Positions 12,125-43,672 of a DNA stretch of 46,874 nt are shown in pieces; within the stretch, counting starts at the first letter, position 1, and each line of letters begins with the position of its first letter. Source of the stretch: a phage; the sequence record PZ445467.1; one strand, written 5' to 3'. The notes beneath the pieces were generated by a model. That model had not been told where the DNA came from. It saw only the letters and a program-made list of their open reading frames with translations, and did not search any database. A program made the translations under genes and the position numbers.

Positions 12125-14004
<1,880 letters not shown>

Positions 14005-14006
14005 TA

Positions 14007-15077
14007 ATGGAAAAGATTATTTTTACCAAAGACCTGGTAGCCAACTCCGCAGTGGTGGCTGACCAGTGGAAACATCTGACCATCGACCGCAAGGTGTTCT
14101 GCAATGCAGAAGCTGAACTGGCGAAAACATACGGTGTTAACGCCACCGCACTGGTAACGAAAGATTACTGGCGCGACGTGGATAACGTCACCACCCGCGT
14201 TTTCCGCAACGAAGCTGGTCAGGACATGATGGCTGACCTGATGGGCATCGCGGCAAACATCAACATCGGAAAGACTGTGGCAATCAGCCGCATTGCTTCC
14301 GATGCTGGCAAGGTAGTCCGCACTCTGTCTGGTCAGGAGCCGGAAGATTTGGATAAAACTCGCTACGATTACACTGGCGATGTGATCCCAATCTTCAAAA
14401 CTGGCTACAGCCGAGAATGGCGCGAGCTGCTGGGTATGCAGTCTGAAGGCTTCGACCCACTGCTGGACGATCAGGCCAACGTCACCTTTAACCTGCGTTC
14501 CGACATGGCGCAGTATCTGCTGACCGGCGACCAGACTCTGAACGTGAACGGCGTTTACACTGGCTATGGTATCACCAACCACCCGAACACTGTTCAGGTT
14601 AACCTGAATGCTTCCGGCGGCCTTAATATCGACCTGCAAACTGCAACGCCAGACGAAATCGTGACCTTCTTCAATCAGGATTTCCAGGCTATTCTGGATG
14701 CGCAGAACGTATTTGAGCAGGTGACTCTGTGGGTTTCTCCGGCAGTGCGTCGTAGCTTCATGCGTCCGTATTCTGATGCGGCAGGCTTCAAAGGCGGCAC
14801 TGTTGAGCAGTACATCACGCAGTTTGGCAATGGTCGCATCGGTAAGATTGGCACCAACTTCCTGCTGACTGGTAACCATTTCGTTGGCTACGTTCGCAAC
14901 GACATGTACATCCGTCCGCGTGTTGCTCAGCCAGTTTCCACCTACGCGGCAGCTCGTGCCAACCCGCACGATAACTTTAACTTCCTCGTGTGGTCTGCTT
15001 TTGGTTTGCAGATTCGCAAGGACGCCACTGGCAAGTCCAGAGTGTTCAACGGCTACGGTACGCAAACTCCGGTGTAA
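14007..15077 (+). CDS. major capsid protein
   Basis: 356 aa; GGAG SD; position after scaffold/decoration genes; terminator follows. Confidence 0.7.
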   Translation: MEKIIFTKDLVANSAVVADQWKHLTIDRKVFCNAEAELAKTYGVNATALVTKDYWRDVDNVTTRVFRNEAGQDMMADLMGIAANINIGKTVAISRIASDAGKVVRTLSGQEPEDLDKTRYDYTGDVIPIFKTGYSREWRELLGMQSEGFDPLLDDQANVTFNLRSDMAQYLLTGDQTLNVNGVYTGYGITNHPNTVQVNLNASGGLNIDLQTATPDEIVTFFNQDFQAILDAQNVFEQVTLWVSPAVRRSFMRPYSDAAGFKGGTVEQYITQFGNGRIGKIGTNFLLTGNHFVGYVRNDMYIRPRVAQPVSTYAAARANPHDNFNFLVWSAFGLQIRKDATGKSRVFNGYGTQTPV

Positions 15078-15080
15078 TAA

Positions 15081-15104
15081 AAAAAGGGGCGAAAGCCCCT
15101 TTAT
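15081..15104 (+). terminator. rho-independent terminator after capsid gene
   Basis: stem AGGGGC/GCCCCT with GAAA loop, then TTAT. Confidence 0.55.
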
Positions 15105-15120
15105 GAATTTGAGGTGAATA

Positions 15121-15318
15121 ATGGCTAAATACGAAGTGATCGCTCGCGGAATCTTTGTTAAAGAGAAGGGCAAGATTCGTGAATTGCAGCTTGGCGAGGT
15201 GATTACCGAGCCAGACGAGCATCTGCTACCAAAACTGCGCGTTATGCCAGAACTGGAAAAGACTTTCGAAGTCGCAACCCCGCAACAAAAGACGACAAAG
15301 AAAAAGAAAGCAGAGTAA
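15121..15318 (+). CDS. hypothetical protein (65 aa)
   Basis: ATG after GAGGTGA; Lys-rich C-terminus. Confidence 0.5.
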   Translation: MAKYEVIARGIFVKEKGKIRELQLGEVITEPDEHLLPKLRVMPELEKTFEVATPQQKTTKKKKAE

Positions 15319-15320
15319 AC

Positions 15321-15348
15321 AAAACCCGCATCATGCGGGTTTTTTATT
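15321..15348. terminator. bidirectional rho-independent terminator
   Basis: stem ACCCGCA/TGCGGGT flanked by A-run upstream and TTTTTATT downstream, between convergent genes. Confidence 0.65.
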
Positions 15349-15349
15349 G

Positions 15350-15886
15350 CTACAGACGCATCGGCATAACAACAATCTTAGCAGTCTCGCCAGATGGCGC
15401 ATTAAGACAGCAAACTGCGGCATTTGTGTTTCCATTAAGTTCAAATTTGATACAACTGAATTTAGGATTAAACAGCTTCGCCACTTTCTCAACGTCAACC
15501 AGATATCCAGCATTGAAGCCAATTTCCTCTGCTGGCAAGGTCTGCTTCGGAATGACGCGATCAATATCAGGGAATCGCCCGTCAATCTCTTCACAGATAC
15601 CAGCACCAACCATAACGCCAGCTTCATCATGATACGTTGCAATTTTCGACTTTGTATCAATGATGGCGTAGTCATAGCGTTTTGTTGGTGACTTGCCAAT
15701 CTTGATAATCACATTTTCTGTAAGATTATTATCATGGTTTCCACCAATAAATGCGCGATGACCGTCAGTTGATGCAATACGACCATCAGGCATAAAGCAA
15801 ATGCCATTCAGGTAATATCGCACATCGTTGCGCGCCTGAAATATTAATGCTGATTCAAGTAATAGTTTGCCGATTTTTAGTTTCAT
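15350..15886 (-). CDS. truncated DNA polymerase III beta sliding clamp (DnaN) homolog, 178 aa
   Basis: blocks DVRYYLNG, TDGHR, DGRFPD..RV.PK, EIGFN..Y..DV and C-terminal VVMPMRL match E. coli DnaN domain II and the end of domain III; domain I absent. Confidence 0.7.
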   Translation of the reverse strand: MKLKIGKLLLESALIFQARNDVRYYLNGICFMPDGRIASTDGHRAFIGGNHDNNLTENVIIKIGKSPTKRYDYAIIDTKSKIATYHDEAGVMVGAGICEEIDGRFPDIDRVIPKQTLPAEEIGFNAGYLVDVEKVAKLFNPKFSCIKFELNGNTNAAVCCLNAPSGETAKIVVMPMRL

Positions 15887-16059
15887 CACTTCACCTTAAT
15901 CATATGCTGTTTTGCAACCTTCAGGCACTCCTCAAAAATGCCACCCTTCTTTGCGCTCTGATTGCGCTTGTAATACTGAACTGCCGCATCAATTGCCATC
16001 TGGTCGATTTCAGGCAGTTTGGTACGTAGTTGTTTTTCAATGAATTGTTCTGGTGTCAT
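15886..16059 (-). CDS. hypothetical protein (57 aa)
   Basis: ATG with TAATG overlap to MTase stop; stop overlaps DnaN-like start. Confidence 0.4.
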   Translation of the reverse strand: MTPEQFIEKQLRTKLPEIDQMAIDAAVQYYKRNQSAKKGGIFEECLKVAKQHMIKVK

Positions 16060-16856
16060 TAAACGGACCTCATGAATGCTTTAATGAATTCTGCTGCGAC
16101 TTGTGGAACTATGGCATTGCCATAACCGCGCAATCGTCCCACTCTTGCGGATACCCCATGAGTTGCCTCGCAAAATCCGCCTGGTATGACTCTAGTTTCC
16201 TTATCTGCTCCATGGTTGGGTTTCCATGAATCCCATAAACATGAAGCCACATCTGGCGATAAAGAGTATCGTTCCTGAATTTTCCGTCCTTTCTGTAAAA
16301 TGTCTTGCTGAGATCCCCGTAATCCTTCCATCCTCGCGCCGTTGGTGTCGCCCATCCTCGCGCCAAAGATGATTCTTTTCCTTTCCTGTGGAGAGCCGAC
16401 GCTGCAAGCTGGCAATACTGACGCCCCGCAGGCGTAGCCTTTGTCTTCCAGGTTAAGGAATACAAAATCGAGCCAGTGCTTCCCAATTGCTGCTGCAACC
16501 TGCTCTCCAAACAGCAATTCAGGCTTGCACTCTCTGATGAGCCTGAGAAATGCTGGGGCAAGGTGTCGATCGTCGTCAAATCCGAGAGACTTACCGGCAA
16601 CGCTAAACGGCTGGCAAGGTGGTGATCCTGTCCAGAGTCGAGTGCTTTCTGGTATTCCTGCCAGCTGGAGTGCAAGGGGCCACCCTCCGATTCCGGCAAA
16701 GAAGTGACACTGTGTAAATCCTTCCAGGTCTGAAGGGGTGACTTCGGTGATTGATCGTTCATCGACATATCCGTAAGGAATTAGTTTATTGTTAATTAAT
16801 TCACGCAGCCATGCCGCTGCGCCCTTGTCCCACTCATTGTAATAGTGGACCATCAT
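16059..16856 (-). CDS. DNA (cytosine-5)-methyltransferase, orphan; TRD/motif IX appear to lie in the +1 frame
   Basis: frame A has FAGIGG (I), PPCQPFSVAG (IV), GEQV (VI), QERKR (VIII), GNAIVPQVAAEF (X); overlapping ORF 16109..16768 carries IRKL...ARQLMGYP (motif IX-like). Confidence 0.7.
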   Translation of the reverse strand: MMVHYYNEWDKGAAAWLRELINNKLIPYGYVDERSITEVTPSDLEGFTQCHFFAGIGGWPLALQLAGIPESTRLWTGSPPCQPFSVAGKSLGFDDDRHLAPAFLRLIRECKPELLFGEQVAAAIGKHWLDFVFLNLEDKGYACGASVLPACSVGSPQERKRIIFGARMGDTNGARMEGLRGSQQDILQKGRKIQERYSLSPDVASCLWDSWKPNHGADKETRVIPGGFCEATHGVSARVGRLRGYGNAIVPQVAAEFIKAFMRSV

Positions 16857-17665
16857 CACATCTTCTCCAGAATTGCCATCACCTCGTGAATATCAGCAAC
16901 AGGAATCTGGATAAACTCCTCATTCTCTGCCACTACATGACCAGCAGGAAGAATAACGTGGTCAGCTGGCTTCAGTAACTCAATCAGTCGGTCTACTGGC
17001 TTAATCTTTTTCGACTTAAGCACCTTCGCCGTTACCTTATCCTTGCCTTGCGCCTTCGCTTCTTCGACTGCCTCGTCGATAACTTTAACCGCATCATCGC
17101 CATGTTCGCGAGTTACTGCTACGGCATTTGCATAGCTGATTTGCCCTGCACTGATTCGCGCTTTTACTTCGGCTGGCACATCACCCAGTGACAGGTGCAT
17201 CTGCACGTCAGAAACTGAGCGCCCTACCTTCTTGGCGATTTCCTCGTTGGTCCAGCCAAAACCCTTCAGTCGCGTGTAAGCCTTTGCGCGTTCAAACGGG
17301 TCAAGCTGCTTACCCTGACTGGACGACACCATGAAGGCGATTTTATCTGCTTCGCCTCCTGTGAAATCCTTGCACTCAATACGAACAATTGGTGCGCCAC
17401 GCTCAATGGCACGCAACGCTCCGAGATAGCGATGCTGACCATCAAGAATGCGGATTCCCTTCTCGTCTGGAATAACTGTTAATGCTGGCAATGGCTGACC
17501 TGACTCCCAGCACTGCGCGAAATACTCCACATGCTGCTCATCTGCTTCGCGGATGTTGTATCCTGGTTCCAGATAGATTTGCTCAACTGGCACGAGATAT
17601 GTCTTGTTTACCGCGATTCCGTTGCGCGTTTCTTTGTCTGAATAGATTTTGCTTAGTGTTTTCAT
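16856..17665 (-). CDS. ParB-like nuclease/partition-domain protein (269 aa)
   Basis: ILDGQHRYLGA ParB-box-like segment followed by a likely HTH region; GAGGAG SD; stop overlaps MTase start. Confidence 0.55.
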   Translation of the reverse strand: MKTLSKIYSDKETRNGIAVNKTYLVPVEQIYLEPGYNIREADEQHVEYFAQCWESGQPLPALTVIPDEKGIRILDGQHRYLGALRAIERGAPIVRIECKDFTGGEADKIAFMVSSSQGKQLDPFERAKAYTRLKGFGWTNEEIAKKVGRSVSDVQMHLSLGDVPAEVKARISAGQISYANAVAVTREHGDDAVKVIDEAVEEAKAQGKDKVTAKVLKSKKIKPVDRLIELLKPADHVILPAGHVVAENEEFIQIPVADIHEVMAILEKM

Positions 17666-17668
17666 TGT

Positions 17669-18292
17669 TTACTCCTCATCACCGGAATTAGCAATATCGT
17701 AAAACTGACCGTATGTTATCTGCTTAAAGTTATCAGGTATCGTTACCTGTCCATGACCTTCACCTTTTGTATTTGGCACGGCAAAAATCAGGCAATCATC
17801 CTTTTGCGGGTGTTTGCCGCCATGAGTAGACAGCATTGCAAAACCAAATCCGCGACCAGATTGCTCTCCGATTCCGGTGCGTGCGATGCCATAATGATTA
17901 ACAATATAGTCTTTCCATTCTGGCAATAACTTTAATTTCTCGTTTGCCTCGCGCATCACCGCGTCCAGATTTTTGTTGTATTCCCGCCCGTCTTTTGTGT
18001 TTCCTTTTCCGCGAGCCACGATTACACGCTGACCATCCAAGAACTCTTCGCGCTTTATTGTCACAGGGCACGGAAATTCAAACTGCTTACTCCACACAAA
18101 GCTCTCAAGTAAGCCACCACCGACTGCTCCCCAGCTACGTGTCGTGGTGAAAGCGATAGCGCCAACCTTTTTCATGGCGTCGCCAAGAACTTCATTGCGG
18201 CGCTTTTGGATGTCATCATATGCGTCAATAACTTTCTTAACATCAGCACCTTCAACCATGTAATAATCATAATGTTTTGCATTGCTGCTCAT
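17669..18292 (-). CDS. hypothetical protein (207 aa), first gene of leftward operon
   Basis: ATG 18292 is 8 nt after GAGGTGA; track ORF extends to 18310. Confidence 0.5.
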   Translation of the reverse strand: MSSNAKHYDYYMVEGADVKKVIDAYDDIQKRRNEVLGDAMKKVGAIAFTTTRSWGAVGGGLLESFVWSKQFEFPCPVTIKREEFLDGQRVIVARGKGNTKDGREYNKNLDAVMREANEKLKLLPEWKDYIVNHYGIARTGIGEQSGRGFGFAMLSTHGGKHPQKDDCLIFAVPNTKGEGHGQVTIPDNFKQITYGQFYDIANSGDEE

Positions 18293-18310
18293 CTTCATCA
18301 CCTCTAGCAT

Positions 18311-18409
18311 TTATTGTTGTTTCTACGTCACTAACTATAAACGCCACATCAATCTACGTCAACAGGAATATGCTAAAATCATGCTAATCAAAAAACAGGA
18401 GATTTGAGC
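18311..18409. promoter_or_regulatory. divergent promoter region with two ATCTAC motif copies
   Basis: motifs at 18319-18331 and 18350-18363; TGCTAAAAT extended -10 at 18371-18379; AGGAG SD before ATG 18410. Confidence 0.5.
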
Positions 18410-33726: not shown

Positions 33727-34212
33727 TTAGAAGGGTATTGAATCATCGAAGTCTATCGGATGCTCATTGCCTCCTTGTATGCTTTGTTGTTTTTGCTGTT
33801 GTTGTTGCTGTTGCGATTGTTGGCCTGATTGCTGTCGTGGTTGCTGCTGACTGGAATCATCACGTTTACCACCAAGCATCTGCATAACGCCGCCCACCTG
33901 TGGAATAACAATCTCAGTGGTGTATCGGTCTACGCCATTGCTGTCAGTCCACTTACGAGTGCGTAGCTGACCTTCGATATAAACCTGCGATCCTTTGCGA
34001 AGGTATTCTCCTGCAACTTCTGCAAGTTTCCCGAAGATGACAACGCGATGCCATTCAGTTTGCTCTTTCTTTTCTCCTGTTTGCTTGTCCTTCCACTGTT
34101 CAGATGTTGCAACAGAAAGATTGGCAATTGCAGAGCCTGATGCTGAATATTTAACTTCAGGGTCGTTGCCGAGAGTGCCGACAATAATTACTTTATTTAC
34201 GCCGCGTGCCAT
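33727..34212 (-). CDS. ssb: single-stranded DNA-binding protein
   Basis: 161 aa; OB-fold-like N-terminus, Gln/Gly-rich linker, C-terminal DFDDSIPF acidic tail. Confidence 0.9.
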
Positions 34213-34215
34213 TTA

Positions 34216-35253
34216 TTAAAATCCTTCAATTGGAGTTGGTTTGTGTTCTGTTTTTTCTTCCTGCGGTTCTGGCTGCTGTGGTTGCGGTTTAGCCAGTTTT
34301 GCAGGATTGAAATTATCCTGCGGAGTTATTACCACAGGAGATAATTGCTCATCATTGATAAAAGACTCAATGCGATCATATTCAGCGGCAGAAGCAGCCA
34401 GAGAAGGCCAGATTGCGCGAATTTTATCTTTCAGGTTATCAGGTATTGATTTTGCTTCTTCCTTCAGGCCTTCCATGCCTTTTGCTGCAGAAAGCTGAAG
34501 TCTTGAGCGCCATGACTCAAACTCTTCGTCAACTTTAACGCCAGAGTCAACCCATTTGATGAGTCCGCGACCATGCGCCTCTCCAATATATCCATGGCGA
34601 ACACTTTCACGACCAGACTCAAAGAATATTGGGCGTAGTTCTTCTGGTAATTTTGTGAACTCCTGAATTTTTCCTCCATCGTGCATCATCATGCTCACGG
34701 TCATCTCGAACATGAAATCTTTCTCGCACACTGGTTGCAACCCAAGTGATACAGGTTCCTTCGGGTTTGCGAAATCAGTTTTCTGACGTGCGCGAAGGCA
34801 GACAATGATATGCATATTGCTTTGTAGCATGGCATTCATGAACTTCTTGTGTTCAGCTTTGGCGCGCTTCCAGTCAGCCATCTTTTTACCGTTAAGCAGC
34901 GGCTTTTCAGCAATCTCCGTGCAACTGCCTTCACCTTCCCATTCATGCGAACCTGAATCAATAACAAGAACCTTAACGCCGGCAGCCTGAAACTCTTCAA
35001 TGGCCTGACGGTAACGGGCCGGGCTGAATGGAGCATACATATCAGCGTGCAGGAATTTGCCATCAAGGATGTTTGAGTACAGGCGACCGCGACCGTTTTC
35101 AGTATCAAGGAATCCGATTTCTTCTGGTGAATCAACCATCCCGCGAGCCAGCTTAAGTGCGCTATATGTTTTGCCGCTACCTGACTGGCCTGAAATGCCG
35201 ATGACCACGCGAGAACCTGAACGCTCTGCTGGTTTAATATTGAGAATACCCAT
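34216..35253 (-). CDS. RecA-like/AAA ATPase (Sak4-like recombination protein, putative)
   Basis: Walker A GISGQSGSGKTY; ATG 35253 is 8 nt after GAGG; track ORF extends to 35271. Confidence 0.5.
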   Translation of the reverse strand: MGILNIKPAERSGSRVVIGISGQSGSGKTYSALKLARGMVDSPEEIGFLDTENGRGRLYSNILDGKFLHADMYAPFSPARYRQAIEEFQAAGVKVLVIDSGSHEWEGEGSCTEIAEKPLLNGKKMADWKRAKAEHKKFMNAMLQSNMHIIVCLRARQKTDFANPKEPVSLGLQPVCEKDFMFEMTVSMMMHDGGKIQEFTKLPEELRPIFFESGRESVRHGYIGEAHGRGLIKWVDSGVKVDEEFESWRSRLQLSAAKGMEGLKEEAKSIPDNLKDKIRAIWPSLAASAAEYDRIESFINDEQLSPVVITPQDNFNPAKLAKPQPQQPEPQEEKTEHKPTPIEGF

Positions 35254-35263
35254 TTGCATTACC

Positions 35264-35452
35264 TCACTCAAATTCTACAAAATCACCACCAACCATTTCG
35301 ACGATAATGAATCCAGATTCATCATCATATGTTGCCTGCCATATAGCTCCAGTTTCGTCGCTTATTTTAAAGGTACCACCAAAAAAGTCAGCGCTATACC
35401 ACTCATCTTCTTTAAATCTTTTGCTTGTTGAGCTTGCACAAAATAATTTCAT
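35264..35452 (-). CDS. hypothetical protein (62 aa)
   Basis: ATG 35452 preceded by GTGAGGTG. Confidence 0.4.
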   Translation of the reverse strand: MKLFCASSTSKRFKEDEWYSADFFGGTFKISDETGAIWQATYDDESGFIIVEMVGGDFVEFE

Positions 35453-35469
35453 TTGCATCACCTCACTAA

Positions 35470-36408
35470 TTATAAATTAAACTGTTTTTTGAACCATTCA
35501 GGCGTTTCCATTTCTATGACAGGATTACCCATTGAATAACCGGGCCACGAATTGGCTTTTTTGCACGCCTTGTAAATTTCCATAGCGCCATGCAACTGAA
35601 TTCGACCGATGCGTAATTGCTCTTCAGTCAAGCGAATTAACGCAGGAATAAATGGTGCTTTCTTTTCCTGAACGAGAAGATTAACAGAGCGTGGCGCATG
35701 ACCATATGCCGCAACAAACATGTCGTGCTGCATCGCCATTTTCATAAAGTACCCAAGTCTCGCAGCATGACGGAAAAACTCTTCTGGCTTGGCGCTCACC
35801 GCTGTTTTGTAGTCGATGATGTCGCCACCTTTGGTAAGGCAGTCAAAGCGAACTTTTGCCTTCTCTCCGTTAAGTTCACCTAGAATTGACACTTCAGCAT
35901 AAGCACCAGCGAGAAGACTGCTGTAATAGCTGTTTGCGTGGATTACAGCACGCATTTGCTGAATAGCGTCATAATCACCACCTTCCAGCATTTGCTTTCC
36001 TACAGCAGCTTTTTCAGCCTCTTCACGGATGACATCGTAAATTTTCACTGGCTCGCCAGTCGCCTGGATGATTTTGATCACCTCAGCTTTCGACTTTCCT
36101 GAAAGTCCTTTGATGCCTCGTTCTTTTGCCCATGAGTTCATATCACTTACAGTAACAAGCAGGTCATCACCAAAATCTTCTTTGGTTGGCATTCGTGCAT
36201 ATTCAGCATCAAAACGCTCTGGTTCAAGCAACGCAGTATGGCTACCTGTACCGAATATAAGAGCTTTTGATTGCTCATCCTCTTCGTCTTTGTATCGCCA
36301 TGCTGCTGGGCATCTGTCAAGTATATTCCATAATCCAGAGCCATTAATATGCTCTGTGTCTGCGTGGTAATCTTCATTACTGAGTTCATTATTGAAATAG
36401 ACTTTCAT
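35470..36408 (-). CDS. PD-(D/E)xK family nuclease (DUF3799/Cas4-like, putative exonuclease)
   Basis: GTGSHTALLEP and DIIDYKT segments consistent with PD-(D/E)xK nucleases; GGAGAG SD. Confidence 0.5.
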   Translation of the reverse strand: MKVYFNNELSNEDYHADTEHINGSGLWNILDRCPAAWRYKDEEDEQSKALIFGTGSHTALLEPERFDAEYARMPTKEDFGDDLLVTVSDMNSWAKERGIKGLSGKSKAEVIKIIQATGEPVKIYDVIREEAEKAAVGKQMLEGGDYDAIQQMRAVIHANSYYSSLLAGAYAEVSILGELNGEKAKVRFDCLTKGGDIIDYKTAVSAKPEEFFRHAARLGYFMKMAMQHDMFVAAYGHAPRSVNLLVQEKKAPFIPALIRLTEEQLRIGRIQLHGAMEIYKACKKANSWPGYSMGNPVIEMETPEWFKKQFNL

Positions 36409-36410
36409 CA

Positions 36411-37037
36411 TCACTCTCCGTGGTTACAGAATTCTTTATGCATCTTTTCTCTAAACTTCATGACAGCAACTCTTGCTTTATCAATATCATGAAATAATCC
36501 AATGTGGTATTTAATACCATTAACCGTACATCTGGCATGCCATTTTTTGCATTGTTTGTTCCAGTAAACACCTTTCACTCCAGATGTATTATTTTTTTGC
36601 TTTTTACGATTAAACTGATTCTGTTCATTGCTTGCTATTCTTAAGTTATCAATCCTGTTGTCATCTCTAATGCCATTAATGTGATCAATATTATCTTCTT
36701 GCCAATAACCATAACAAATCAACCACGCGAGTATGTGAGCATAATACCTATTATTATTTATGCTTATTTCTATGTAACCGTTATCTTTTTTGCAGCCCGC
36801 CAAATCTCCATTGTTTACGCAACCAACAGTCTTGTTCCATGCAAACAAACCAGTTACCAGATTGTAAGTTAAGTTATCTAAAACAACATTACGAGGTATT
36901 CTTTTTCTTCCACCTATGGTGTTTGACCCTGCATTTCCCTGAGCAAAATCTTGCTTTTGCAGTTCCGATAAACTCATTTCCGCAAACCTCGCACTTCTTA
37001 ACGGTGATAGCCATTTCTTAACCTCTATTGTAATCAT
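36411..37037 (-). CDS. HNH homing endonuclease with C-terminal AP2 DNA-binding domain
   Basis: HNH_3 pattern YYAHILAWL...DHINGIRDDNRIDNLR; AP2-like GVKGVYWNKQCKKWHARCTVNGIKYHIGLF. Confidence 0.8.
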   Translation of the reverse strand: MITIEVKKWLSPLRSARFAEMSLSELQKQDFAQGNAGSNTIGGRKRIPRNVVLDNLTYNLVTGLFAWNKTVGCVNNGDLAGCKKDNGYIEISINNNRYYAHILAWLICYGYWQEDNIDHINGIRDDNRIDNLRIASNEQNQFNRKKQKNNTSGVKGVYWNKQCKKWHARCTVNGIKYHIGLFHDIDKARVAVMKFREKMHKEFCNHGE

Positions 37038-37082
37038 TTACCGTTACATTGCAAGTAACTTTTATTTGTTACTAACAATACA

Positions 37083-37430
37083 TCAATCTACATCATTCAG
37101 CAAGCCAAAATAGAAAAGTGTGGCTCTTTTTAGTTCATCAAGACCGTAAGCAATGGCGGCATAATGACCAAGTCTGCACATCTCAGTTAACACAGCCGAT
37201 TGCTCCTTGCTCACTCTGCTTTTGCTTTTATCGCGGCGCTTTGACTCAATCATCCCGCAACTGTGATTCGCACCCGGCGTCATTATCACGTTGTCGCCTA
37301 TTCCAGGCTTAACCCCCATCTTCTGGCGCTTCAGTACGAACTGGACGCGGCTGGATGTTCCTGTTTCATTCGGGACGTGAAACCATAGCACATCAGGGAA
37401 ACAGTGTTGCATCCATGTTCCATAACCCAT
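37083..37430 (-). CDS. VRR-NUC domain nuclease
   Basis: HVPNE...GVKPGIGDNVIM...ESKRRD pattern; ATG 37430 after GAGGAG (track ORF has TTG at 37523). Confidence 0.5.
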   Translation of the reverse strand: MGYGTWMQHCFPDVLWFHVPNETGTSSRVQFVLKRQKMGVKPGIGDNVIMTPGANHSCGMIESKRRDKSKSRVSKEQSAVLTEMCRLGHYAAIAYGLDELKRATLFYFGLLNDVD

Positions 37431-37494
37431 CTGGTCAGTCTCCTCTTTTGGGCATTCGCCGCGATAACCGCTATCAAATACCCATATACCGCTA

Positions 37495-39432
37495 TCAAGC
37501 TGCTTCACTTTGTTCTCCTGCAAAATCTTTTCTATGGATTATGTCGCGACCTTTATCATTAATGCGATGAGTGATGCGTTTTGGCGCTTTAATCAATCCA
37601 GCATACATCATGAACTGCTTAGCATTCTGGCATTTCAGGATTTTCCCCGCCATTGACTTATCATCAAGGTGAGGAAAAATAGCCTTTGCCTTGAACATGT
37701 TTTTCATGTGAGTCGCACCGCCATATGGGTAGAAAACTTCGTTAGCCCAGCCTTCTTTGCCATCACAACGATTAATCCAGTAGCGATACAAAATACCTTC
37801 TCCATCCTTTGTTAGCTGGACTTTGAAATCAATAACATCAGCCCACTCATTATCGGTATACGCACGCTCATTCAGTGCCGCATTCGGGTCGCGCAACACG
37901 TGATCGCAATGCCGGCAATAGCGCGCCGTTGGGTCGTTTTTAGTGCCGCATCCATCATCAAAAATCCGTATTCCGTGCTTATCAAAACCGCAACGAATAT
38001 AACTGAAAAACTCCTCGCAGCGACCATCTGGCGACAATGCATCTTTGCCAATGCATCGACGCGCATATGGGCTGTTCATTGTTCCACATGTATGACACGG
38101 AACTTGTTCGCCACTGCGTTTTGAACGTTGCGCTTCAGCTTCTTCCAGAATTGGGTCTTCATATAGCTGACCAAGCTCAAACATCGTGCCTGAGAAATCA
38201 AGAACCAGATGGTTTTCTTTATGATACCCGGCGTCAATTTGGTCTTTCTTCAGCAGTCGCATTCCGCGACCAAGCAACTGAACAAGAAGGGTGAGCGACA
38301 TTATTTTTCGCAATATAACGCTTGTATCCCATAGCGGGATGTTTACGCCGGTCGTCAAGCAACCAATTTGGAAAACATATTTAATCTTGCCAGTGTATGC
38401 ATCCTTTAATGCCTTGCGTCTGGCTTTCTGTCCCATATCTTCGGTGACGATCGCATAACTTCCTTCAGGTAGGTATTTTGCCGCCTCCTGACAGTGCTTC
38501 TTGCCAGCGCATGTAATCAATACGCCGTTTCTGTTTTTTGTCAGCTCCATAACCTTGAGCATGATTTTCTGCGTGAGTGTTCCTTGCTCAAGGATTTCTT
38601 TCTGCATCTGCTTGAGTTGCTCGGTGGTAAATTCCTGAACTCCATCACTTCCTGACGCCTCAAATGCTGACAGGTCGTAATGCAGATCATCAATATCATG
38701 AAGACCAAAAATTGTAGGGACAAGAAAGCCATTATCAACAAGGTATTTGGTATCAATATTTATTATTTCATGCTTCCAGTAAGAACCCTTAATTGACTCA
38801 GTTCCACGAAATGGGCTGCCAGTGTAGCCAATAACAATGACATCGTGTCCGTATTTAGCTTTGCACCTACGGTTAAATTCGGTCATTATTACGCCGTACT
38901 GTGTGTCTGAATCTTCTCCAACAATATCCTCCCAGTTCACTTGATGGCACTCATCAACCAAAATATATCGTGGGCAAAAGTCTGAAAGTGCACACTTTGA
39001 GATAACATTGCCTGATTCATCCTTTATGTCGAAAAGTGAGTTTTTTATTGTTCTCTCCGTCCCAGCAATAAGCGGGTATGCCGTTGACTTTCTGCCAAGA
39101 GACGCGCTGAAAAGTGAGTTTTTAACACTCAGATTCCATAGCTCTTCCGCATCCTGCTCAATAATTTCCCCCTGTCTGGCAATAACAAGGCCTTCCCACC
39201 CCATATCCTGAAAGCGTCGCGCAATCATGGCAATCATAATGGTCTTTCCAGCACCTACAGATGCCGTCACAAAACTTGGCTTAGGGTCTTTGCCAAACTT
39301 GCGGATAACTTCAGCCGTCTTTTCATAAACCAGCCACTGATATGGTCGCGGCTCAATCTCACCCGTATGAACAACTGACCGCAATTTGTCTATATCCAAT
39401 TCAGCAATCATTGCGTCTATTTTATGCGTCAT
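37495..39432 (-). CDS. DExH-box superfamily II helicase (645 aa)
   Basis: Walker A ASVGAGKT; DECH box (VDECHQV); Cys-rich C-terminal region. Confidence 0.7.
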   Translation of the reverse strand: MTHKIDAMIAELDIDKLRSVVHTGEIEPRPYQWLVYEKTAEVIRKFGKDPKPSFVTASVGAGKTIMIAMIARRFQDMGWEGLVIARQGEIIEQDAEELWNLSVKNSLFSASLGRKSTAYPLIAGTERTIKNSLFDIKDESGNVISKCALSDFCPRYILVDECHQVNWEDIVGEDSDTQYGVIMTEFNRRCKAKYGHDVIVIGYTGSPFRGTESIKGSYWKHEIINIDTKYLVDNGFLVPTIFGLHDIDDLHYDLSAFEASGSDGVQEFTTEQLKQMQKEILEQGTLTQKIMLKVMELTKNRNGVLITCAGKKHCQEAAKYLPEGSYAIVTEDMGQKARRKALKDAYTGKIKYVFQIGCLTTGVNIPLWDTSVILRKIMSLTLLVQLLGRGMRLLKKDQIDAGYHKENHLVLDFSGTMFELGQLYEDPILEEAEAQRSKRSGEQVPCHTCGTMNSPYARRCIGKDALSPDGRCEEFFSYIRCGFDKHGIRIFDDGCGTKNDPTARYCRHCDHVLRDPNAALNERAYTDNEWADVIDFKVQLTKDGEGILYRYWINRCDGKEGWANEVFYPYGGATHMKNMFKAKAIFPHLDDKSMAGKILKCQNAKQFMMYAGLIKAPKRITHRINDKGRDIIHRKDFAGEQSEAA

Positions 39433-39507
39433 AGCTACTAACCTTTGTTGATGTTTCTACGTCAGTTAGCTTATACTCAATCTACACCAACAATCAAGGG
39501 TCAATTT
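39433..39507. promoter_or_regulatory. divergent promoter region (helicase leftward, primase rightward) with two ATCTAC motif copies
   Basis: TTGATG 39448-39453, TATACT 39472-39477; motifs 39453-39465 and 39478-39491. Confidence 0.5.
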
Positions 39508-40461
39508 ATGAGATATGACTGGAAGGAAATCGAGCCAAAAATGATCGGCAACTGGCAGGCTGCCATCATGTCTATCGTCAATGTGGATAGCAGAGTTTTC
39601 AATGGCAAGCACCAGCCATGCCCTCATTGCATGGGGGTTGACCGGTTCCGTTGGGATAATCACTTCGAAACAAAAGGCGATGGCGGCGCAATCTGCAATC
39701 AGTGCGGTTCCGGCAGCGGCATGAATTGGCTGATGAAACTCTCCGGAATGAGCTTTCCTGAAGCACTGGAGGCGCTTGGTGGATTCCTGAACATGCACCC
39801 GCGTGAAAAGCTGGAGGCAATCAGGAAAGAGCTACCGAAGATAAATCACAGCGATGACTTCATCACCGAGCAGGAAGTCGCAGCAATCATGGCTAAAACG
39901 ACTCGTGTCGCGATGAATGAGTGGACTTTGATAAATGGTATTGGTTGCGACGTTAACGTCACCAGAGGCAAATCTGGAGAACTTATTGCGGTTGAGATGA
40001 TGCGAGCTGACACAATGAAACTGTGCAACGTGGCATTCATTGGCATGGATGGTGATTCAATCAGAACGTTTTTCCGCGCAGGATACAACAAGGACTCAGC
40101 CATCAACGGCAAACTCACGCGCGGCGCGATAAGCCCAATCGGAGAAGACAACGGGAAGTTCATTTACCTGGTATCTGATTATGCCGATGCGTGGAAGTGC
40201 CATTACTTCACTGGCGCGCATGTCTGGTGCTGCTGGTCGCCGGAAAACATGTGGGAAGTAATGCGCTCTGTTAGCGATGAAACGAAGGCGAGGTTGCGCT
40301 GCATAGTTAATTATAAATTCGACGAACTGTGTGCAGCAGAAAACGCAGGGATTCCGGTGATGCTTCCTGATGATGCCGACACTATCAGGATGGCAAAGAG
40401 AATCAGGAGAAAGATTTATGACGCTGGCGAGTTGATAGAGAAAATGTCAGTTAGAAGATAA
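39508..40461 (+). CDS. putative DNA primase / Zn-ribbon replication protein (317 aa)
   Basis: CPHCMG...CNQCG zinc-binding pattern near N-terminus; AAGGG SD; divergent from helicase. Confidence 0.45.
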   Translation: MRYDWKEIEPKMIGNWQAAIMSIVNVDSRVFNGKHQPCPHCMGVDRFRWDNHFETKGDGGAICNQCGSGSGMNWLMKLSGMSFPEALEALGGFLNMHPREKLEAIRKELPKINHSDDFITEQEVAAIMAKTTRVAMNEWTLINGIGCDVNVTRGKSGELIAVEMMRADTMKLCNVAFIGMDGDSIRTFFRAGYNKDSAINGKLTRGAISPIGEDNGKFIYLVSDYADAWKCHYFTGAHVWCCWSPENMWEVMRSVSDETKARLRCIVNYKFDELCAAENAGIPVMLPDDADTIRMAKRIRRKIYDAGELIEKMSVRR

Positions 40462-40490
40462 AAGAAACCCTCCGACTGGAGGGTTTTTGT
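40462..40490. terminator. bidirectional rho-independent terminator
   Basis: 9-bp stem AAACCCTCC/GGAGGGTTT with GACT loop, followed by TTTTT. Confidence 0.7.
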
Positions 40491-40795
40491 TATGCTTTGA
40501 TGTTAACTTTTATTGCGAACACTTCCACCGGGTCAGGACCGAAATGTGGGTGGGTGATGGTCTTAACCGTCCATCCATCGTATGGGATATCAATACGCCT
40601 GGATTTATCGTCCTTCTTTGGATATCCTTTTGTGATAATTAACCTTTCGTACTTCCTTCCAATCTGTCCGCTATCTTTAAAGTTAATAAGGCGCTTCTTC
40701 CAGTAGTCATTAAAAAGGCGATACTCTTCCGTTTTATCTCCGCGAATCATGGCATCGAAGTATTCACCTTTGACGGCAAGTTGCAGGTTAGCCAT
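40490..40795 (-). CDS. ASCH/PUA-like domain protein (putative)
   Basis: 101 aa from ATG 40795; GEYFDAMIRGDKTEEYR resembles ASCH N-terminal motif. Confidence 0.4.
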   Translation of the reverse strand: MANLQLAVKGEYFDAMIRGDKTEEYRLFNDYWKKRLINFKDSGQIGRKYERLIITKGYPKKDDKSRRIDIPYDGWTVKTITHPHFGPDPVEVFAIKVNIKA

Positions 40796-41051
40796 TATTT
40801 CCCTCCAGAATCCAAACTGAATTACCAATACGACTGTTATTTAAATCCTTTGACACGCGGCCATCCTTACAAAGAGAAATCAGAACCTTCCGTAACTTCG
40901 CTGCTGTCCATTCATCATCAGGAAATTCATTCACCATTGATAGACGCAAACTCCACGTAGCCACTGAGAACTTACGAAAAATTCCAAGTTTCTCCTCCTC
41001 AATGGATTTTCTCTTTCTCATCACATATAAAACCTTATCCTTCACATCCAT
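40788..41051 (-). CDS. hypothetical protein (87 aa)
   Basis: ATG with AAGGAA/GAGGG upstream. Confidence 0.45.
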   Translation of the reverse strand: MDVKDKVLYVMRKRKSIEEEKLGIFRKFSVATWSLRLSMVNEFPDDEWTAAKLRKVLISLCKDGRVSKDLNNSRIGNSVWILEGNNG

Positions 41052-41061
41052 TTCCTTACCC

Positions 41062-41253
41062 TCACTTAATCATCATCTTTGAAATATCAACGTGACCAAC
41101 ACAAAATCTGTGCCAGTAATCATCAAGCATGTGGTAATTAGAGCGAATCCATACTTTGTTAATCCGGCTCCAGAAAAACCACGTCGAATAACCATGCGGC
41201 CTGAAATGCCATAAACCTTCTGAGCGACAAATTTCGCCTGATATTGTTCTCAT
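41062..41253 (-). CDS. hypothetical protein (63 aa)
   Basis: ATGA overlap with upstream gene stop. Confidence 0.4.
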   Translation of the reverse strand: MRTISGEICRSEGLWHFRPHGYSTWFFWSRINKVWIRSNYHMLDDYWHRFCVGHVDISKMMIK

Positions 41254-42806
41254 TTCAACCTCGGATTTATGTGAACAGTATTCCCGATAAATACGCAGTA
41301 ACCATCCTCTTCAAGTGATGGCAATACACTTGACCTGAGTCGGTCATAAATTTTAGGTATCCCTTTGAATGGTCGTACGTTTTTAAGTGAATCATAAAGC
41401 CACTTCACCGTTACGTTTGTTTTTCCTTTCTGAGCGGCAGAGCGTAGCTTTTCGGCAACAACATCAAATTCAGAACGCTCACCAGCATATCCATTTGATT
41501 CCACGGCGTCGGTGAATGTTTTTGTTAGTGCGTCATAAACACTGATGGCGCGACTAATTTCATTTTCACCGATAATCTTTGATTGCTTTCCTCCATCACA
41601 CCAGTTTTCAGCAGCGTGAAATATTGCTGCCAGACGTATTATTTGCTTATCAGCTTTACCCATCGCGCCACGAAGAAGGACGTGATCCCACTTACCGCCG
41701 GGAAGGAAGTTTTTCTCCCACTGATTTCGTAACAGGCCAATCATTCTTGCTGAGTCATTGTGAAGCGTCAGTTTTGTTTTTTCTGCTGACACAACATTAT
41801 GTATAAATCTTGCATATTCCGACCTCAAGCTATCTGGCATTGGCTTGCTTACAGGGCAATCATTAACCATGTCCCAGTGTTCGCGATAGCCAAGCATTGA
41901 TTGCTCTCGCAACATCAGGAAACGTTCAGAAAGACCGTTCCCCCTGTCGCCAGCGGCAAGAATGGCATCAATACTTTCATCCTGCGCAATCACACTTATG
42001 TTTCCAAGCACGTAACCAGATGAAACGCCACGACCAACACGAGCAGAACCAATGAATCCGCCATCCCAGCCCTTCAGGATGACTTCGGCGTTTGCCTTTC
42101 CACCTTCTTTTCCGTAAGAGAGGCCAAGACATGTGTTAAGGACGCTTGCCTCGTCACTTATCAGATTAAAAAAACCACCTTCATGAATGGCCTGATGCTG
42201 GACAGCCTCCGGAGTTGCGTCCGTCAGTGGATATGTGATCGTATAAAGCTCCTCCAGCTTCTCCTTTTCGCGAGCAATATCATCGCCGATTAGTGCCTTT
42301 GCATTCTGATTACTGGCCTCTTTGTATGCCTTCATCAACTCTTCAATGCGAAGATTTATTTTTATGATCTGCTTTTCCATCTTTTTGGAAAGGTTGTCAT
42401 ATTCAATCTTCACCGGATTCATGTGCATTGAGTTGATGGCAGTTTTCCCTGCTGATGGAGGCTGAGAAGTAACCACGTAAAGAGAAACTGGAAGCTCTGA
42501 ATGGTAATACTCAACGCTAAAGTTTCTCGTCATTGCGCTGGCAACGCACCCAAGTAAATGCATGAACGATGTATTTATTGGGAACTGAACAGCACGAGCT
42601 GCAGCGATTGCATAACGAGACAGCAAATCTGTTCTGTGCTCACTGGTCAGTTCTGTTTCTGAGTACGTTACATCACGCTCCTTACCTTCCTTGATATCCA
42701 GCCACATATTTGAGCTTGGTGTCATGCCATGATGGAAGGCGACGCGAGCAGGAGATACTTTCAATTCCCTTGCTTCGTTGAAGATATCTTGAGCTGTGAT
42801 CATCAT
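41250..42806 (-). CDS. replication-associated protein (518 aa; possible P-loop NTPase)
   Basis: large ORF heading the leftward replication module next to the origin-like region; SAGKT P-loop-like segment. Confidence 0.45.
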   Translation of the reverse strand: MMITAQDIFNEARELKVSPARVAFHHGMTPSSNMWLDIKEGKERDVTYSETELTSEHRTDLLSRYAIAAARAVQFPINTSFMHLLGCVASAMTRNFSVEYYHSELPVSLYVVTSQPPSAGKTAINSMHMNPVKIEYDNLSKKMEKQIIKINLRIEELMKAYKEASNQNAKALIGDDIAREKEKLEELYTITYPLTDATPEAVQHQAIHEGGFFNLISDEASVLNTCLGLSYGKEGGKANAEVILKGWDGGFIGSARVGRGVSSGYVLGNISVIAQDESIDAILAAGDRGNGLSERFLMLREQSMLGYREHWDMVNDCPVSKPMPDSLRSEYARFIHNVVSAEKTKLTLHNDSARMIGLLRNQWEKNFLPGGKWDHVLLRGAMGKADKQIIRLAAIFHAAENWCDGGKQSKIIGENEISRAISVYDALTKTFTDAVESNGYAGERSEFDVVAEKLRSAAQKGKTNVTVKWLYDSLKNVRPFKGIPKIYDRLRSSVLPSLEEDGYCVFIGNTVHINPRLK

Positions 42807-43486: not shown

Positions 43487-43672
43487 ATGAACAAAGAAAG
43501 CACGTACAGCATCGACCAGATGAAGTTGTTCAGCGATATATGCATGGCATTGTCACAACAGGTTCCAAGTCTACCTGCTGATATGCGCTCAAATGCCATC
43601 ATTGATGCGGCAAACATGATTTGTGAGGCATATGCTATGACTGAAGATGAATATAAGGCATCGAAGAAATGA
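43487..43672 (+). CDS. hypothetical protein (61 aa)
   Basis: ATG after GAGGGTGA. Confidence 0.5.
   Translation: MNKESTYSIDQMKLFSDICMALSQQVPSLPADMRSNAIIDAANMICEAYAMTEDEYKASKK

Follow-up and report, generated by a model that had tools for sequence, protein, structure and literature searches.

What might a phage do with half of a sliding clamp? The question is raised by a gene on the minus strand, at 15350..15886, of a 46,874-nucleotide stretch of phage DNA (sequence record PZ445467.1; this whole stretch is referred to below as the window). The 178-residue product of the gene resembles only part of DnaN, the β sliding clamp of bacteria. A first-pass annotation, made from the letters alone, had described it as a half-length DnaN homolog, perhaps recently captured from a host and then internally deleted, which cannot close into a normal ring on its own and which might act either as a mimic that titrates clamp-binding proteins or as a partner that poisons host β. 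Our analysis upholds the homology, the truncation and the absence of a normal ring, and strengthens the idea of a mimic; the recent capture is rejected, and the poisonous dimer gains no support. The protein, which we call the mini-clamp, consists of about one and a half clamp domains, and sequence conservation within its family is concentrated on the pocket with which β receives the clamp-binding motifs of its partners.

Homology and architecture of the mini-clamp

Sequence searches consistently identified the mini-clamp as a true homolog of the β clamp DnaN. A phmmer search of all PDB sequences gave E=1.1e-11 for Enterobacter β and 5.9e-11 for E. coli β, aligning query residues 8-170 with β 136-302 and a second stretch, 121-179, with β 315-366. 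BLASTP against E. coli DnaN (with a numbering that agrees with the PDB alignments) gave 29% identity at E=1e-11, and a second high-scoring segment onto residues 316-366 (31%, E=1e-5). The dnaN profile TIGR00663 matched at E=3e-9, with a score of 36.2 bits that lies far under its 137.65-bit equivalog cut-off, and the Pfam clamp domains PF02767 and PF02768 were sub-threshold at 15.2 and 17.2 bits (cut-off 27 bits).

The structure was predicted using AlphaFold2 (AF2), from an alignment of 136 sequences. The model is a compact unit of high confidence (pLDDT 97, pTM 0.91), and the top 50 PDB matches found for it by Foldseek are all bacterial β clamps, nearly all of them from E. coli, with probability 1.0. 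The query-normalized TM score (TMq) is about 0.66 over approximately 260 alignment columns, the surplus columns being gaps over the missing part. Many of these matching β clamps were solved with ligands in the pocket, and there is no solved short form among the PDB matches from either the phmmer or the Foldseek search. The clamp-like character that had been proposed from short motif blocks is thus borne out both by sequence comparison and by structure prediction of the protein alone, and all five of those blocks re-translate at their exact coordinates, listed here together with the gene and the loop described below.

15350..15886, minus strand: coding sequence of the mini β-clamp, 178 amino acids (stop codon 15350-15352; ATG 15884-15886; alternative GTG 15887-15889)
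15803..15826, minus strand: DVRYYLNG block, equivalent to β 150-157, with pocket residues R152 and L155 (query R24 and L27; family conservation 0.98 and 0.90)
15755..15769, minus strand: TDGHR block, equivalent to β 172-176, with pocket residues T172, G174, H175 and R176 (family conservation of T 0.92, G 0.99, H 0.92)
15662..15697, minus strand: short loop GKSPTKRY replacing the second helix of domain II (DSSP of the AF2 model)
15545..15583, minus strand: DGRFPDIDRVIPK block, equivalent to β 238-250, the connector between domains II and III, with pocket residues P242, R246 and V247 (conservation of P107 0.99)
15491..15526, minus strand: EIGFNAGYLVDV block, equivalent to β 316-327, the start of the C-terminal half of domain III, with pocket residues N320 and Y323
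15353..15373, minus strand: VVMPMRL C-terminal tail, equivalent to β 360-366, with pocket residues V360, M362, P363, M364 and R365

The open reading frame (ORF) listing adds one codon upstream, a GTG start at 15889 that gives a protein of 179 amino acids, and mini-clamp residues are numbered throughout in this 179-residue frame.

The aligned regions cover only β 136-250 and 315-366. Retained are the N-terminal half of domain II with its sheet, the II-III connector, and the C-terminal half of domain III with the tail; absent are domain I and β ~251-314 of domain III, which is the dimer-interface half. The domain limits given in the first-pass annotation, from domain II to the C-terminus without domain I or the first half of domain III, are therefore correct. 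Compared with bacterial DnaN (TIGR00663; PF00712, PF02767, PF02768), which has 366 residues in three domains and forms a ring, the mini-clamp shares homologous sequence and fold, 16 of 18 pocket residues and the MPMRL tail, whereas both dimer faces are missing, and a normal head-to-tail ring is for this reason impossible.

A further element of domain II has also been lost. The AF2 model contains only two helices (residues 7-16 and 126-139), as against six in β. The second helix of domain II, which lines the channel in β, is replaced by the 9-residue loop GKSPTKRY, and DSSP assigns no helix at residues 64-72. This segment is 10-11 residues long in 111 of 132 aligned sequences (the query and 131 family representatives), and the short GKxP loop in place of the helix is found in the window protein and in about 85% of the family. 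A minority has a helix-like segment of 14-19 residues, including the proteins of Acinetobacter phage 4316 (L007 4001-4579) and Bcep781 (gp15; L004 5977-6558), both of which keep a sequence of the form IIPxDAI. The presence of the helix segment in some distant members suggests a stepwise reduction within the family. The mini-clamp consequently amounts to about 1.5 clamp domains, and is too short to hold the second and third domains in full.

A closed or C-shaped ring, working as a true sliding clamp, could in principle be regained by self-assembly, for example from four copies of 1.5 domains each, which would supply six domain equivalents, or from a dimer in which the half-domains complete each other. 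The arithmetic is suitable, three units of the β-α-β-β-β type in each of four copies giving the 12 units of a ring, but it is arithmetic only; in addition, the half domain exposes a surface that in β packs against the missing half. Set against this, the head-to-tail interfaces of canonical β are not retained, conservation is poor at the positions that correspond to the interface strand, each copy has lost an inner helix, no clamp loader is encoded in the window, and the AF2 monomer is confidently predicted as a compact unit. We consider such an assembly to be improbable.

Conservation at the clamp-binding-motif pocket

The pocket of E. coli β that receives clamp-binding motifs is composed of subsite I (R152, L155, T172, G174, H175, R176, L177, P242, R246, V247, V360 and M362) and subsite II (H175, N320, Y323, V344, M362, P363, M364 and R365) (PMC11139829). 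The mini-clamp is identical to E. coli β at 16 of these 18 residues, compared with 39 of the 148 aligned positions outside the pocket (26%; Fisher p=3.4e-7). The exceptions are L177, which is replaced by alanine, and V344, replaced by threonine; V344 is itself not conserved among β clamps. The five blocks noticed earlier are, in effect, the pocket.

The same pattern extends through the family. We calculated conservation over 131 representatives of 50%-identity clusters, which are roughly 28-50% identical to the query. Conservation averages 0.72 at the pocket and 0.37 elsewhere (Mann-Whitney p=9e-7), and pocket residues occupy 10 of the 15 most conserved positions: G43, P107, R24, M175, H44, Y129, T41, P176, L27 and R178. 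Most of the remaining positions in this group flank the pocket (D22, Y26, G29 and G104). Within the EIGFNAGYLVDV block the conservation is 0.92 for Y129 and 0.76 for N126. At the C-terminus, about 102 family members carry the motif MPx[R/K], and 86 of these stop one or two residues past it, as β does. On this comparison of sequences, the pocket residues are kept under selection across the family. That selection is concentrated on the peptide-binding pocket is a point for which we found no statement in the searchable literature, and it is new here.

The distribution of conserved residues also bears on the proposal that the protein poisons host β. According to that proposal, the mini-clamp would pair edge to edge with a host β protomer, or with a clamp opened by the loader, and so block closure or function; domain boundaries in β are pseudo-equivalent, so that the exposed edge of the phage domain II may indeed be topologically analogous to the domain I edge of the β dimer. 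However, the stretch that corresponds to the interface strand (query about 93-101) has some of the lowest conservation values of the protein, 0.11-0.40, the domain III interface region (β ~268-305) is deleted, and all of the strong conservation lies at the pocket rather than at the edge. With the canonical interface elements absent, we find no support for a heterodimer of this kind, and regard it as very improbable.

In contrast, the suggestion of a clamp mimic that titrates clamp-binding proteins gains from these results, given 16 of 18 identical pocket residues as against 26% identity elsewhere, and their conservation in the family. It is most likely that the pocket of the mini-clamp would bind clamp-binding motifs, that is, peptides of the Q-L-x-L-F type.

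Family history and the annotation record

The mini-clamp belongs to a large, old and deeply diverged family of short phage proteins. A profile-free scan of 1.84 billion cluster representatives gave 1,794 matches at E<=1e-3 and 181 at E<=1e-10; among the best 150 representatives, 131 are 165-215 residues long, and these are only 28-50% identical to the query. The profile phrog_3007 matches over residues 2-179 at E=2e-61. By tblastn, the gene is present in 271 phage records, from phages of Escherichia, Salmonella, Klebsiella, Vibrio, Acinetobacter, Proteus, Burkholderia, Edwardsiella and Shewanella, and Bcep781 gp15 was matched at 32% identity. Many predicted viral structures in BFVD, of 178-210 residues, have TM scores of 0.8-0.9 to our model.

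A recent capture of host dnaN followed by internal deletion is not supported by this picture, and we reject it. The identity to E. coli β is only 29%, a sensitive blastn search with the gene as query gave no match in 5,426 complete E. coli genomes, and the family is an old one of equal length. The near-identity of the short blocks, which had suggested recency, is best explained instead by purifying selection on the pocket. Comparisons with individual hosts are less informative: the Acinetobacter phage protein matches A. baumannii DnaN at 1.7e-6 and E. coli β at 6.7e-6, a difference too weak to interpret, and the best matches of Bcep781 gp15 are E. coli-type clamps, again too weakly for this to be read as host-tracking.

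The existence of the family is already on record, and what is established here is the architecture of the mini-clamp, about 1.5 domains with a deleted helix. In GenBank the gene is labeled "DNA polymerase III beta subunit" or "beta clamp domain protein", and Bcep781 gp15 is annotated as "DNA Pol III b subunit fragment". Shortened phage homologs of polIII-β were noted in 2011 by Kazlauskas and Venclovas, who gave their extent as "the second and third domains" and, taking them to be probably dispensable, considered them no further (PMC3201878). These homologs, Bcep781 gp15 and PHROG 3007 represent the same family as the mini-clamp. In the searchable literature we found no functional study of short phage clamps, only annotations in genome papers and the one-sentence record of 2011.

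A different label, "RusA-like Holliday junction resolvase", is attached to PHROG 3007 and is spreading into RefSeq and BASEL annotations, in records that include PQ850598, PQ850625, NC_054652 and NC_054647. We reject this assignment. A Pfam scan at E<=10 returned only two DnaN domains and no RusA (PF05866), and the structural matches in Foldseek and BFVD are only to clamps. We observed a genuine RusA gene (PF05866) as a separate gene near a family member on one metagenomic contig (L015 4066-4434), and this proximity may explain the mislabel. A practical gain from the present analysis is the correction of an annotation error that is spreading through phage genome records.

The label and the question of age together address the view that the gene is either a mis-annotated resolvase or what is left, without function, of a dnaN gene acquired by horizontal transfer. 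Kazlauskas and Venclovas assumed that replication can do without clamp homologs of such origin, and the resolvase name stands in both PHROG and RefSeq. The family nevertheless numbers hundreds of proteins that are constant in length and conserved above 90% at specific sites; this cannot be reconciled with decay and effectively refutes a remnant, and where the label names a resolvase the searches show only clamp domains. We attach almost no weight to either possibility.

Genomic context and possible functions

The window is essentially the complete genome of a lytic E. coli siphophage. Its 4-kb region at 14000-18000 matches the BASEL phages Bas77 and Bas78 with about 99.5% identity across 92% of the region, and Jersey-like Salmonella phages of the Guernseyvirinae with about 92% identity. 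The mini-clamp gene is the last of five in an operon (15321-18362, minus strand) that is antisense to its surroundings, with the capsid genes on one side and the head-tail and tail genes on the other. In order of transcription, the operon encodes a 213-residue protein, a ParB-like protein, a C5-methylase-like protein, a 57-residue protein and the mini-clamp, as listed here from the promoter to the terminator.

18334..18362, minus strand: sigma-70-like promoter match upstream of the operon, TTGACG-17-TATAGT (10/12; a consensus match only)
17669..18310, minus strand: protein of 213 amino acids and unknown function, first gene of the operon (phrog_2260)
16856..17665, minus strand: ParB-like protein, 269 amino acids (HTH_ParB, KorB; phrog_1033, 3e-90)
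16059..16859, minus strand: C-5 cytosine DNA methylase-like gene, 266 amino acids (PF00145, 1e-21; phrog_363)
15886..16059, minus strand: ORF of 57 amino acids and unknown function (phrog_4439)
15321..15343: bidirectional hairpin resembling an intrinsic terminator, 10-bp stem with 5 GC pairs

The ATG of the mini-clamp overlaps the TGA stop codon of the 57-residue ORF by one nucleotide (TGATG), which suggests translational coupling, and is preceded by a Shine-Dalgarno-like AAGGTGA. The hairpin at 15321-15343 closes both the minus-strand operon and the convergent plus-strand genes of the capsid region. The 213-residue protein has no match in Pfam or PADLOC, and PADLOC gave no defence-related match for the mini-clamp or for its two unknown operon neighbours. 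The methylase-like protein is short, and at 266 residues matches only positions 59-165 of the 324-position Pfam model. Nearby, a 390-residue ORF (14001-15173, minus strand) runs antisense across the whole of the major capsid gene (14007-15077, plus strand); the records of the near-identical phages Bas77 and Bas78 leave it unannotated, and it is probably a shadow ORF without coding function. A published temporal transcriptome of Kagunavirus K1B4 does not resolve the expression class of the mini-clamp gene.

The replication genes lie in a separate module (33727-42806), which encodes SSB, a Sak4-like AAA_24 protein, a PDDEXK exonuclease, an SF2 helicase with zinc ribbons, a primase and a DUF3987 helicase. 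There is no DNA polymerase gene in the whole window, and the unassigned ORFs are all too small for one, so the phage must depend on the DNA polymerase III (Pol III) of its host. We considered, and rejected as a rule, the idea that the mini-clamp marks phages that lack a polymerase: EP23, Bcep781, AH2, Acinetobacter phage 4316 and PEi21 all encode one. Two small ORFs of the window carry the pentapeptide QMKLF, which resembles a clamp-binding motif, near the N-terminus, at 35264-35461 (minus strand, position 3) and 43487-43672 (plus strand, position 11); the start annotated in Bas78 for the first of these would drop the Q of the motif.

Gene neighbourhoods were sampled from annotated phage records and metagenomic contigs, and no fixed neighbour was found across the sampled lineages. 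The gene stands alone and antisense within structural modules in the window, EP23, Bcep781, Morganella phage Henu15 and Shewanella phage 1/41, while other members are found in arrays of small unknown ORFs of the kind typical of early regions. A ParB-like gene is upstream of the mini-clamp both in the window and in Pseudomonas phage Riah (L008 2059-2904). Two other phages, Acinetobacter phage 4316 and Edwardsiella phage PEi21, have the gene directly downstream of that for DNA polymerase. The PEi21 homolog (L009 3501-4028) is split into two annotated ORFs of 207 and 243 nucleotides; it could be a pseudogene, or the split could stem from a frameshift or from an error in sequencing. That no phage partner is constant fits a target common to all bacteria.

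The position after a polymerase gene in two lineages is one of several observations that would accord with a processivity or tethering factor that does not form a ring, comparable to herpesvirus UL42 and UL44. A basic face would bind DNA and the pocket would hold a polymerase, making a loader unnecessary; the polymerase would be the phage family-A enzyme where one is encoded, and host Pol III in the present phage. UL42 and UL44 are an established precedent for processivity factors that are not rings, and hold their polymerase through the canonical partner-binding region of the clamp (PMC9690074). Viral clamp homologs without a loader show an elevated isoelectric point (pI), typical of DNA-binding processivity factors of this non-ring kind (PMC3201878), and the mini-clamp family is mildly basic, unlike the acidic ring clamps, with a median pI of 8.3 (7.6 for the window protein), which is suggestive only. 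There are conserved lysine or arginine residues on the retained helix of domain III (135, 138 and 143), again suggestive only, and at position 20, beside the DNA-contacting loop of β.

Several features of the family nonetheless argue against tethering. One of the channel-lining helices is deleted in most members, the window protein itself has a pI close to neutrality, and many of the conserved basic residues form the rim of the pocket (the equivalents of R152, R240, R246 and R365). Most lineages carry the gene at a distance from the replication module, antisense inside structural genes. The phage polymerases examined have no consensus clamp-binding motif, and host Pol III already has β. The resemblance to UL42, a monomer, and UL44, a C-shaped dimer, is one of a clamp fold that does not encircle DNA and is a functional analogy only: the herpesvirus proteins have no detectable sequence relation to the mini-clamp, contain two complete domains, and have been shown experimentally to bind DNA. 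We therefore regard a tethering role as unlikely, although it deserves more attention than the other alternatives discussed above.

The explanation that we favor, by a modest degree, is that the mini-clamp is a pocket module without a ring, which binds clamp-binding motifs. Towards the host proteins that normally dock on β it would be a decoy in solution or, during infection, an adaptor by which they are diverted. Candidate ligands are Pol III α and ε, the clamp-loader subunit δ, Hda, Pol I, II, IV and V, MutS and MutL, and ligase. A monomeric pocket would lack the avidity of the β dimer for the α-ε pair, and by this reasoning may compete best for factors that dock singly, such as δ, Hda, Pol II, IV and V, and MutS/L. 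In a phage without a polymerase, the mini-clamp might alternatively bridge Pol III to the phage helicase-primase. The need for host Pol III makes an adaptor or a selective decoy more plausible than a blanket block of Pol III.

A number of points weigh against this explanation. The geometry of the pocket comes from mapping sequence onto a model, albeit a confident one. Pocket residues are the slowest-evolving of DnaN in general, so that their enrichment could partly reflect ancestry, although retention above 90% at roughly 30% overall identity argues against this. The equivalents of R176 and L177 vary within the family (conservation 0.32 and 0.46), and the specificity of the pocket may differ from that of β. 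The absence of a consensus clamp-binding motif in the examined polymerases of related phages counts here too, and the 6 terminal motif matches among the phage ORFs do not exceed the approximately 10 expected by chance on a rough hand estimate. Finally, a free decoy for the motifs of α or δ should also harm a phage that depends on Pol III.

More speculatively, and with some doubt on our part, a minimal monomeric receptor for motifs could be a host-takeover device that is distributed among hundreds of lytic phages. Such a device might trap δ, Hda, Pol II, IV and V, and MutS/L, and so shut down host clamp loading, repair or control of initiation; or it might hand Pol III over to the phage helicase-primase, in a coupling role like that of τ.

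Other phages are known to make use of clamps in different ways. Full-length phage β clamps (386 residues in Burkholderia phage KL1 gp28 and Pseudomonas phage 73 ORF027; also Ma-LMM01 and RSL1) are likewise phage-borne DnaN homologs, and are sometimes beside a phage polymerase, but they have three domains and could in principle form rings, some with a clamp-loader subunit. MuC of phage Mu (PMC12867686), and gp33 and gp55 acting on gp45 in T4, similarly exploit the interaction between pocket and motif. These phages encode the motif and use a host or phage ring, whereas the mini-clamp provides the pocket without the ring.

The pocket of β is a hub that coordinates bacterial polymerases, the clamp loader, repair enzymes and the control of initiation, and is a target of the antibiotics griselimycin and mycoplanecin. 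If the function proposed here is correct, the mini-clamp would offer a 20-kDa, presumably monomeric pocket domain for biophysical studies and for screening of pocket inhibitors. As a takeover device of the kind outlined above, it would represent a new class of phage-host interaction, in which what the phage steals is the pocket and not the motif. A widespread protein of this type would also reveal by what means phages starve or rewire the β-clamp hub, and could explain how siphophages that have no polymerase of their own capture host Pol III.

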